271 nucleotides of DNA from Escherichia coli. GTDB lineage: Bacteria > Pseudomonadota > Gammaproteobacteria > Enterobacterales > Enterobacteriaceae. The translations under genes and the position numbers were made by a program. The stretch is from assembly GCF_003334785.1 (NCBI RefSeq), contig NZ_QOWV01000091.1; one strand, given 5' to 3'. The first letter of the stretch is position 1; the number at the start of each line of letters is the position of its first letter. Below, piece by piece: positions 3-264 of this stretch. A model generated the notes under the pieces. The model did not search any database and was not told the DNA's origin. It was given only the letters and a program-made list of their open reading frames with translations.

Positions 3-36
3 GTAGGCCGGATAAGGCGTTCACGCCGCATCCGGC
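3..36 (-). repeat. REP palindromic unit, Y type (copy 1)
   Basis: + strand reads GTAGGCCGGATAAGGCGTTCACGCCGCATCCGGC, the reverse complement of the Y consensus written 5'-GCCGGATG...CCTAC-3' (strand given in that convention; it would be + if REP is written GTAG-first). Imperfect stem arms 7-19 and 25-36 around loop ttcac (20-24). Confidence 0.8.
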
Positions 37-49
37 AATGGTGACAAAT

Positions 50-78
50 GCCTGATGCGCTACGCTTATCAGGCCTAC
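50..78 (+). repeat. REP palindromic unit, Z2 type (copy 1)
   Basis: GCCTGATGCGCTACGCTTATCAGGCCTAC; imperfect dyad with arms gcctgatgcg / cgcttatcaggc around a short central tac; terminal CCTAC (GTAG on the opposite strand). Head-to-head with the Y PU across the 13-bp linker 37-49. Confidence 0.8.
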
Positions 79-95
79 AGATTCTCGCGCCACTC

Positions 96-129
96 GTAGG
101 CCGGATAAGGCGTCCACGCCGCATCCGGC
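96..129 (-). repeat. REP palindromic unit, Y type (copy 2, loop variant)
   Basis: GTAGGCCGGATAAGGCGTCCACGCCGCATCCGGC; identical to copy 1 except the loop reads tccac instead of ttcac (t21 vs c114). Stem arms unchanged. Confidence 0.8.
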
Positions 130-142
130 AGTGGTGGCAAAT

Positions 143-171
143 GCCTGATGCGCTACGCTTATCAGGCCTAC
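143..171 (+). repeat. REP palindromic unit, Z2 type (copy 2)
   Basis: Identical to 50-78. The upstream linker 130-142 (agtggtggcaaat) differs from 37-49 (aatggtgacaaat) at two positions. Confidence 0.8.
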
Positions 172-188
172 AGATTCTTGCGCCATTC

Positions 189-222
189 GTAGGCCGGATA
201 AGGCGTTCACGCCGCATCCGGC
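189..222 (-). repeat. REP palindromic unit, Y type (copy 3)
   Basis: Identical to 3-36, including the ttcac loop. Confidence 0.8.
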
Positions 223-235
223 AATGGTGACAAAT

Positions 236-264
236 GCCTGATGCGCTACGCTTATCAGGCCTAC
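236..264 (+). repeat. REP palindromic unit, Z2 type (copy 3)
   Basis: Identical to 50-78 and 143-171; followed by agattct, the start of the tail-to-tail linker, where the window ends. Confidence 0.8.

Follow-up and report, generated by a model that had tools for sequence, protein, structure and literature searches.

An uninterrupted BIME-2 segment between yahG and yahI of Escherichia coli is a target for IS621 and IS1397 and a candidate substrate of RayT

The 271-nucleotide stretch of DNA analyzed here (the window) is the complement of positions 339801..340071 of E. coli K-12 MG1655, where it falls within the 421-bp spacer that separates yahG from yahI, two genes of the yah operon with the same orientation. 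Many E. coli genomes, K-12 among them, contain the window at 100% identity, and the corresponding locus of BL21(DE3) occupies NZ_CP053602.1 310670-311090. Tandem Repeats Finder, run on all 271 bases, returned a single array with a period of 93, 2.9 copies and 95% matches. Each 93-bp unit consists of a Y palindromic unit, an 11-nt linker, an inverted Z2 palindromic unit and a 17-nt linker. The full K-12 array (3.9 copies) comprises eight palindromic units, namely Z2, three Y-Z2 pairs and Y; the window holds the middle six of the eight, with the extra Z2 before it and the extra Y after it. The whole minus strand of the window (1..271) is also part of an annotated open reading frame, yahH (b0322, “protein YahH”; K-12 339769..340089), whose frame stays open across the window, one 93-bp unit being exactly 31 codons long. 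A plus-strand reading frame of 60 amino acids at 48-230 was dismissed as repeat-derived and unannotated. Every one of the 5426 E. coli genomes contained sequence resembling the window, the median number of places being 27, and a query consisting of a single Y unit found a median of at least 40 places per genome. An identical copy of the array is also carried on the F' plasmids of the laboratory strains XL1-Blue, JM109, NEB Turbo and NEB 5-alpha F'Iq.

The first Y unit (GTAGGCCGGATAAGGCGTTCACGCCGCATCCGGCA) spans 3..37 on the plus strand, in REP orientation. It is followed by a short, tail-to-tail (S type) linker of 11 nt at 38..48 and by the first Z2 unit (GTAGGCCTGATAAGCGTAGCGCATCAGGCA), which occupies 49..78 on the minus strand, its GTAG head being read as CTAC on the plus strand. 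A head-to-head linker of 17 nt (79..95) leads into the second copy, made up of a Y unit at 96..130 (+) with the loop variant TCCA, the 11-nt S-type tail-to-tail linker at 131..141, a Z2 unit at 142..171 (-) and the 17-nt head-to-head linker at 172..188. In the third copy, the Y unit at 189..223 (+) repeats the GTAGGCCGGATAAGGCGTTCACGCCGCATCCGGCA palindrome, the 11-nt S-type tail-to-tail linker lies at 224..234, and the Z2 unit at 235..264 (-) repeats the GTAGGCCTGATAAGCGTAGCGCATCAGGCA palindrome. An earlier note on this DNA had placed GTAG tetranucleotides at 3-6, 96-99 and 189-192 on the plus strand and at 75-78, 168-171 and 261-264 on the minus strand, and these coordinates proved exact; CTAC occurs additionally at 60, 153 and 246, where it belongs to the Z2 loops and not to heads. 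The same note described every palindromic unit as intact, the linkers as short and the stretch as free of insertions, and indeed six of six units are uninterrupted and the linkers measure 11 and 17 nt. Beyond that description, we distinguished two unit types (Y and Z2), assigned the repeat to the BIME-2 class, recognized that the window is part of a larger array, located yahH on the minus strand, and found that the number of units varies.

The 14-nt head motif, GTAGGCCKGATAAG, gave six in-register matches, compared with 0.00 expected from 200 shuffles. When folded as single-stranded DNA, the six units adopted one common shape with GTAG unpaired, at -12.2 kcal/mol for Y and -8.6 kcal/mol for Z2. 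In this shape the unpaired GTAG is followed by a 7-bp lower stem, then by two unpaired A residues, and finally by a short upper stem with its loop; in Y the stem mismatch is an internal loop (2x2, AA/GC), and in Z2 it is an AA bulge. The 93-bp units differ from one another at five positions: 21, in the Y loop; 38 and 44, in the 11-nt linker; and 86 and 93, in the 17-nt linker, the linker differences being found in the second copy of each. None of the five falls in the stem of a palindromic unit. Stem-loop palindromes of about 30-35 nt with GTAG at one end, dispersed at high copy number, are what defines REP elements (palindromic units), and the repeats of the window have these properties. In K-12, protection from exonuclease under stress has been reported for eight REP regions of several units each, among them those that EcoCyc names REP31a-g and REP32a-d (bioRxiv 10.1101/2024.07.17.603846).

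The unit types and their arrangement place the window in the BIME-2 class. The Z2 query of PMC11208160, GCCTGATGCGCTACGCTTATCAGGCCTAC, matches positions 50-78 without a difference, and the Y unit of the window departs from the Y query of the same study by one loop mismatch. BIME-2 elements are described as alternating Y and Z2 units with a short linker between tails, in near-identical tandem copies (Ton-Hoang et al., PMC3333891). Alternating Y and Z2, the short S linker and multiple tandem copies were all found here, and the window resembles the published class in its alternation, S linker, tandem near-identity and strain-dependent copy number, with no difference of substance. No match to the IHF consensus was found in the window, even with one mismatch allowed, and the long L linker is likewise missing, so BIME-1 is ruled out. 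DNA gyrase is reported to bind and cleave BIME-2 elements in vivo (Espeli and Boccard 1997).

The earlier note had put forward the GTAG-bearing units as potential substrates of RAYT activity, and had proposed searching the genome for a RAYT gene with similar REPs around it. In K-12 this gene is rayT (b0228, 247637..248134; also called yafM or tnpA-REP). It is flanked by Y/Z1 BIMEs, a Y-Z1 pair lying upstream of it and the array Z1-Y-Z1-Y following downstream. By megablast, rayT was present in 3575 of the 5426 complete E. coli genomes, about one third being without a detectable copy. In vitro, TnpA-REP works on single-stranded DNA only, requires a 5' GTAG together with non-complementary stem bases, and cleaves an inverted unit of the same strand (PMC3333891). 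Two kinds of cleavage site were defined in that work (a caret marks the cut): type I, TGCC^TGA(T/A), which is restricted to Z units, and type II, (G/T)NCC^TAC, within CTAC. GTAG head, 7-bp stem and AA mismatch are present in six of the six window units. The type I consensus occurs as TGCC^TGAT in the inverted REP of each Z2, at 49..56, 142-149 and 235-242 on the plus strand. The type II consensus, within CTAC, occurs as GGCC^TACA at 72..79, 165-172 and 258-265 on the plus strand, and as GGCC^TACG at 9-2, 102-95 and 195-188 on the minus strand. As all the sequence needs of TnpA-REP are contained in the window, the array qualifies by its sequence as a RAYT substrate. In this scheme, RayT would bind a single-stranded hairpin bearing a 5' GTAG and a stem mismatch, and would cut between C and T in an inverted unit of the same strand. 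The window shares the GTAG head, the stem mismatch and the inverted-unit consensus with the substrates cut in vitro from the REPtron (RAYT-REP) system. It differs from that system in that the array lies about 92 kb from rayT and is no part of the REPtron, and in that the BIMEs flanking rayT are of the Y/Z1 type, whereas the window array is Y/Z2. We therefore speak of the array as a candidate RayT substrate, with action on the yahG-yahI locus in vivo as a presumption from its sequence.

Two insertion sequences have published targets in units of this kind. The bridge RNA of IS621 naturally recognizes ATCAGGCCTAC (or ATCGGGCCTAC), whose core is CT (Durrant et al. 2024, PMC11208160). The exact 11-nt form, ATCAGGCCTAC, is found on the plus strand at the head of each Z2 unit, at 68..78, 161-171 and 254-264, and the natural junctions, which follow the CT core, correspond to insertion between 76 and 77, 169 and 170, or 262 and 263. 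The bridge RNA pairs with ATCAGGCCTAC at each Z2 head, with recombination at the CT core. The second element, IS1397, transposes into the loop of a Y unit and generates a duplication of 3-4 bp. Both modes of insertion are seen directly in natural insertions at the yahG-yahI locus. The Y loop region concerned, known from equivalent Y units of other strains and from the reference insertion of CFT073, corresponds to 19..24, 112-117 and 205-210 of the window.

As a marker for IS621 we used the bridge-RNA sequence, with its constant parts taken from the supplement of PMC11208160. The marker was detected in 2239 of the 5426 genomes, at up to 100% identity, and led to the recovery of a full IS621 copy of 1279 bp, which occupies a Z2 unit on the downstream side of rhlE. 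At the left end of the IS621 copy that follows rhlE in strain 90-9280, about 72 nt are duplicated in tandem, the start of the bridge RNA included, and this duplication accounts for marker matches in two pieces. The sequence of IS1397 was taken from CFT073, where the element interrupts the loop of a Y unit located between nlpE and yaeF. A 78-nt reconstruction of the CFT073 empty site was uninformative as an IS1397 finder because its palindromic unit matches everywhere.

The earlier note had also suggested comparing the orthologous locus across strains for insertions within palindromic units. For this comparison we built a chimeric query that joined 1 kb from either side of the yah spacer to 600 nt of IS621 and 600 nt of IS1397, both elements being included in the two orientations, so that genomes with IS621 or IS1397 at the locus should outrank all empty sites. 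The best 35 records had 59% query coverage in three joined pieces; from record 36 onward the records were empty sites, with 45% coverage. In these 35 genomes a transposase is annotated between yahG and yahI, belonging to IS621 in 29 and to IS1397 in 6. Such insertions are rare, at 35 of 5049 locus-bearing genomes (0.7%). A query with the flanks only set the number of split or partial loci at no more than 68 of 5049, of which the IS621 and IS1397 insertions make up 35; in at most 33 genomes, then, the yahG/yahI flanks are split or partly missing without either element, two of these appearing to be partial deletions. Some plasmids picked up by the flank-only query hold just a fragment of yahG.

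Ten filled loci were read at the sequence level, and in all ten the insertion sequence lies inside a palindromic unit at the predicted nucleotide. All six IS621 junctions read have the form ...ATCAGGCCT-IS621-AC... in a Z2 unit, always in one orientation. Two of them, in EC9 and E189, interrupt an eight-unit array at the equivalent of window positions 169 and 170, in the second Z2 unit of the window; the other four interrupt the first Z2 unit of an array with two or six units. The four IS1397 junctions read are all in the Y-unit loop, occur in both orientations, and are accompanied by duplications of GTT, GTTC or TCAC. The ten loci represent no fewer than three different IS621 alleles and no fewer than four different IS1397 alleles, and the many IS621 alleles with one junction may descend from few events. 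These arrangements agree with the known systems. In common with described IS621 target sites (Choi et al. 2003; PMC11208160), the window has the exact 11-nt ATCAGGCCTAC and the junction after the CT core, and the copy in rhlE-ybiA uses a Z2 unit as target just as copies at the window locus do; the window itself is an empty allele, whereas the orthologous locus is filled in 29 genomes. The IS1397 system (Clement et al. 1999; CFT073 example, PMC1525189) likewise features the central loop of Y, a duplication of 3-4 bp and insertion in either orientation, as seen at yahG-yahI; here too the window is an empty allele, and the filled alleles examined differ from it in having shorter arrays of two or four units. 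Because natural insertions are found at the predicted points, the window is a true empty site of an insertion-polymorphic locus. The proposal that this stretch could serve as an empty-site reference is borne out, the window being uninterrupted and filled alleles existing at the predicted points, all of which is ordinary biology for such repeats. The earlier note had named the lack of a RAYT homologue together with the lack of polymorphic insertions as what would count against it; since both of its proposed checks gave positive results, that is not the situation we found.

The locus varies in length as well as in occupancy. Spacer lengths were obtained with the flank-only query from a sample spread over the ranking, in which 57 rows covered both flanks. 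Most spacers measured 142-153 bp (25 of 57 rows) or 421-432 bp (18 rows); spacers of about 95 bp accounted for 7 rows, those of 329 bp and of 514 bp for 3 rows each, and a spacer of 246 bp for a single row. Comparison with the fetched sequences showed that these six length classes, about 93 bp apart, represent 0, 2, 4, 6, 8 and 10 units. The classes match even unit counts, and the array therefore changes by whole Y-Z2 pairs. Steps of this size fit both amplification by RayT and plain slippage or recombination. RayT is one proposed route by which Y-Z2 pairs might be gained and lost, beside slippage or homologous recombination, and the change in unit number is explained equally well by replication slippage or by RecA recombination between the 93-bp repeats. 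In the 95-bp spacer of strain Z142-2, no palindromic unit is present; the place of the BIME is taken by roughly 58 nt of unrelated sequence that include a CCCCTCTCCC...GGGAGAAGGG hairpin.

Taken together, these data make it very probable that the window is an uninterrupted BIME-2 segment of the yahG-yahI spacer that serves as a target for IS621, IS1397 and RayT, the part played by RayT at this locus being conjectural. A further reading concerns RNA. The array may act mainly in cis, as RNA of the yah operon, forming a partly Rho-dependent attenuator before yahI and a 3' stabilizer of the yahG message, with its use by RayT and insertion sequences incidental; we consider this reading rather likely, and it adds to the explanation just given without excluding it. 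The array is indeed situated between two co-oriented genes of one operon, and both strands fold far better than their shuffled counterparts (z-scores of -6.8 and -6.6). In a 2026 preprint, the model array REP325 was shown to be both attenuator and stabilizer within its own operon. Moreover, REP hairpins no more than 15 nt from a stop codon have been reported to stall terminating ribosomes and so to lower expression of the upstream gene, and the last Y unit of the K-12 array begins 13 nt past the yahG stop codon, below the 15-nt limit for such effects on translation. Weighing in the other direction, a search of the array gave neither an intrinsic terminator pattern nor a sigma-70 promoter, and strains exist with anything from 0 to 10 units, so that any regulatory effect must be dispensable or tunable. 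By analogy with other REP arrays, the most likely role at the RNA level is probably that of an intra-operon attenuator and stabilizer between yahG and yahI. A different role for transcripts of the window, as naRNA4-like, nucleoid-associated noncoding RNAs that condense the chromosome with HU, appears extremely unlikely. It is suggested by Rfam RF02564, which matched the plus strand at 6-75, 99-168 and 192-261 with 78, 72.4 and 78 bits, above the gathering threshold of 59.5. However, the structure line of RF02564 amounts to two REP hairpins and a linker, and any BIME is therefore expected to match; the strand above threshold runs antisense to the yah operon, whose sense strand stayed below threshold with 53-54 bits. 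In addition, the nucleoid role of naRNA4/REP325 is contradicted by the 2026 preprint on REP325 mentioned above, whose authors include members of the original group. REP325/naRNA4, in the yjdM-yjdN spacer, is like the yahG-yahI array in being a multi-copy Y-Z array between genes of one operon, and the window matches its Rfam family above threshold; it differs in that the Rfam consensus has a second hairpin exceeding the Z2 of the window by 7 nt, and in that the best-scoring strand of the window is the one antisense to the operon. Rfam matches to mir-456, mir-2007 and isrO were far below threshold and were dismissed as noise.

The minus strand could alternatively be taken at face value, as a real protein-coding gene, yahH, for a repetitive protein. 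The reading frame is open over the entire window, PGAP annotates “protein YahH” in many genomes, and ribosome footprints on yahH (X002) were recorded in EHEC (Neuhaus et al. 2016, PMC4765031). Yet the frame is made solely of repeat, is missing from the zero-unit allele that was read (Z142-2), and is unannotated on most rows with short arrays. The translation reached the cut-off of no NCBIfam family, and support from a curated family or from conservation was accordingly lacking. The differences between units all fall in loops and linkers, as expected of a hairpin and not of a protein; footprints cannot be relied on in a repeat that is strongly structured and present in many copies; and PMC4765031 lists no mass-spectrometry peptide for X002, a gene that had earlier been removed from the annotation for this reason. 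We thus regard a YahH protein as quite improbable, and the evidence gathered here argues against it. From its footprints, the same study proposed a “triple function” for yahH. A locus that combined all three activities, as a DNA target (of RayT, IS621 and IS1397), as an RNA attenuator and stabilizer, and as the source of a translated YahH whose length tracks array size, seems to us very improbable. We retain the BIME-2 target segment as the account of the window, with the attenuator and stabilizer as its probable role in RNA.

In its composition the window is a textbook BIME-2, and the ties of RAYT, IS621 and IS1397 to such repeats have all been published; the new detail is confined to the catalogue of empty and filled alleles at the yahG-yahI locus. 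Thousands of genomes still carry an annotation for yahH, an ORF that consists entirely of BIME-2 repeat. With its empty alleles of 0-10 units and its filled alleles, the yahG-yahI locus may offer a natural test case for bridge-RNA targeting and for the dynamics of REP elements.
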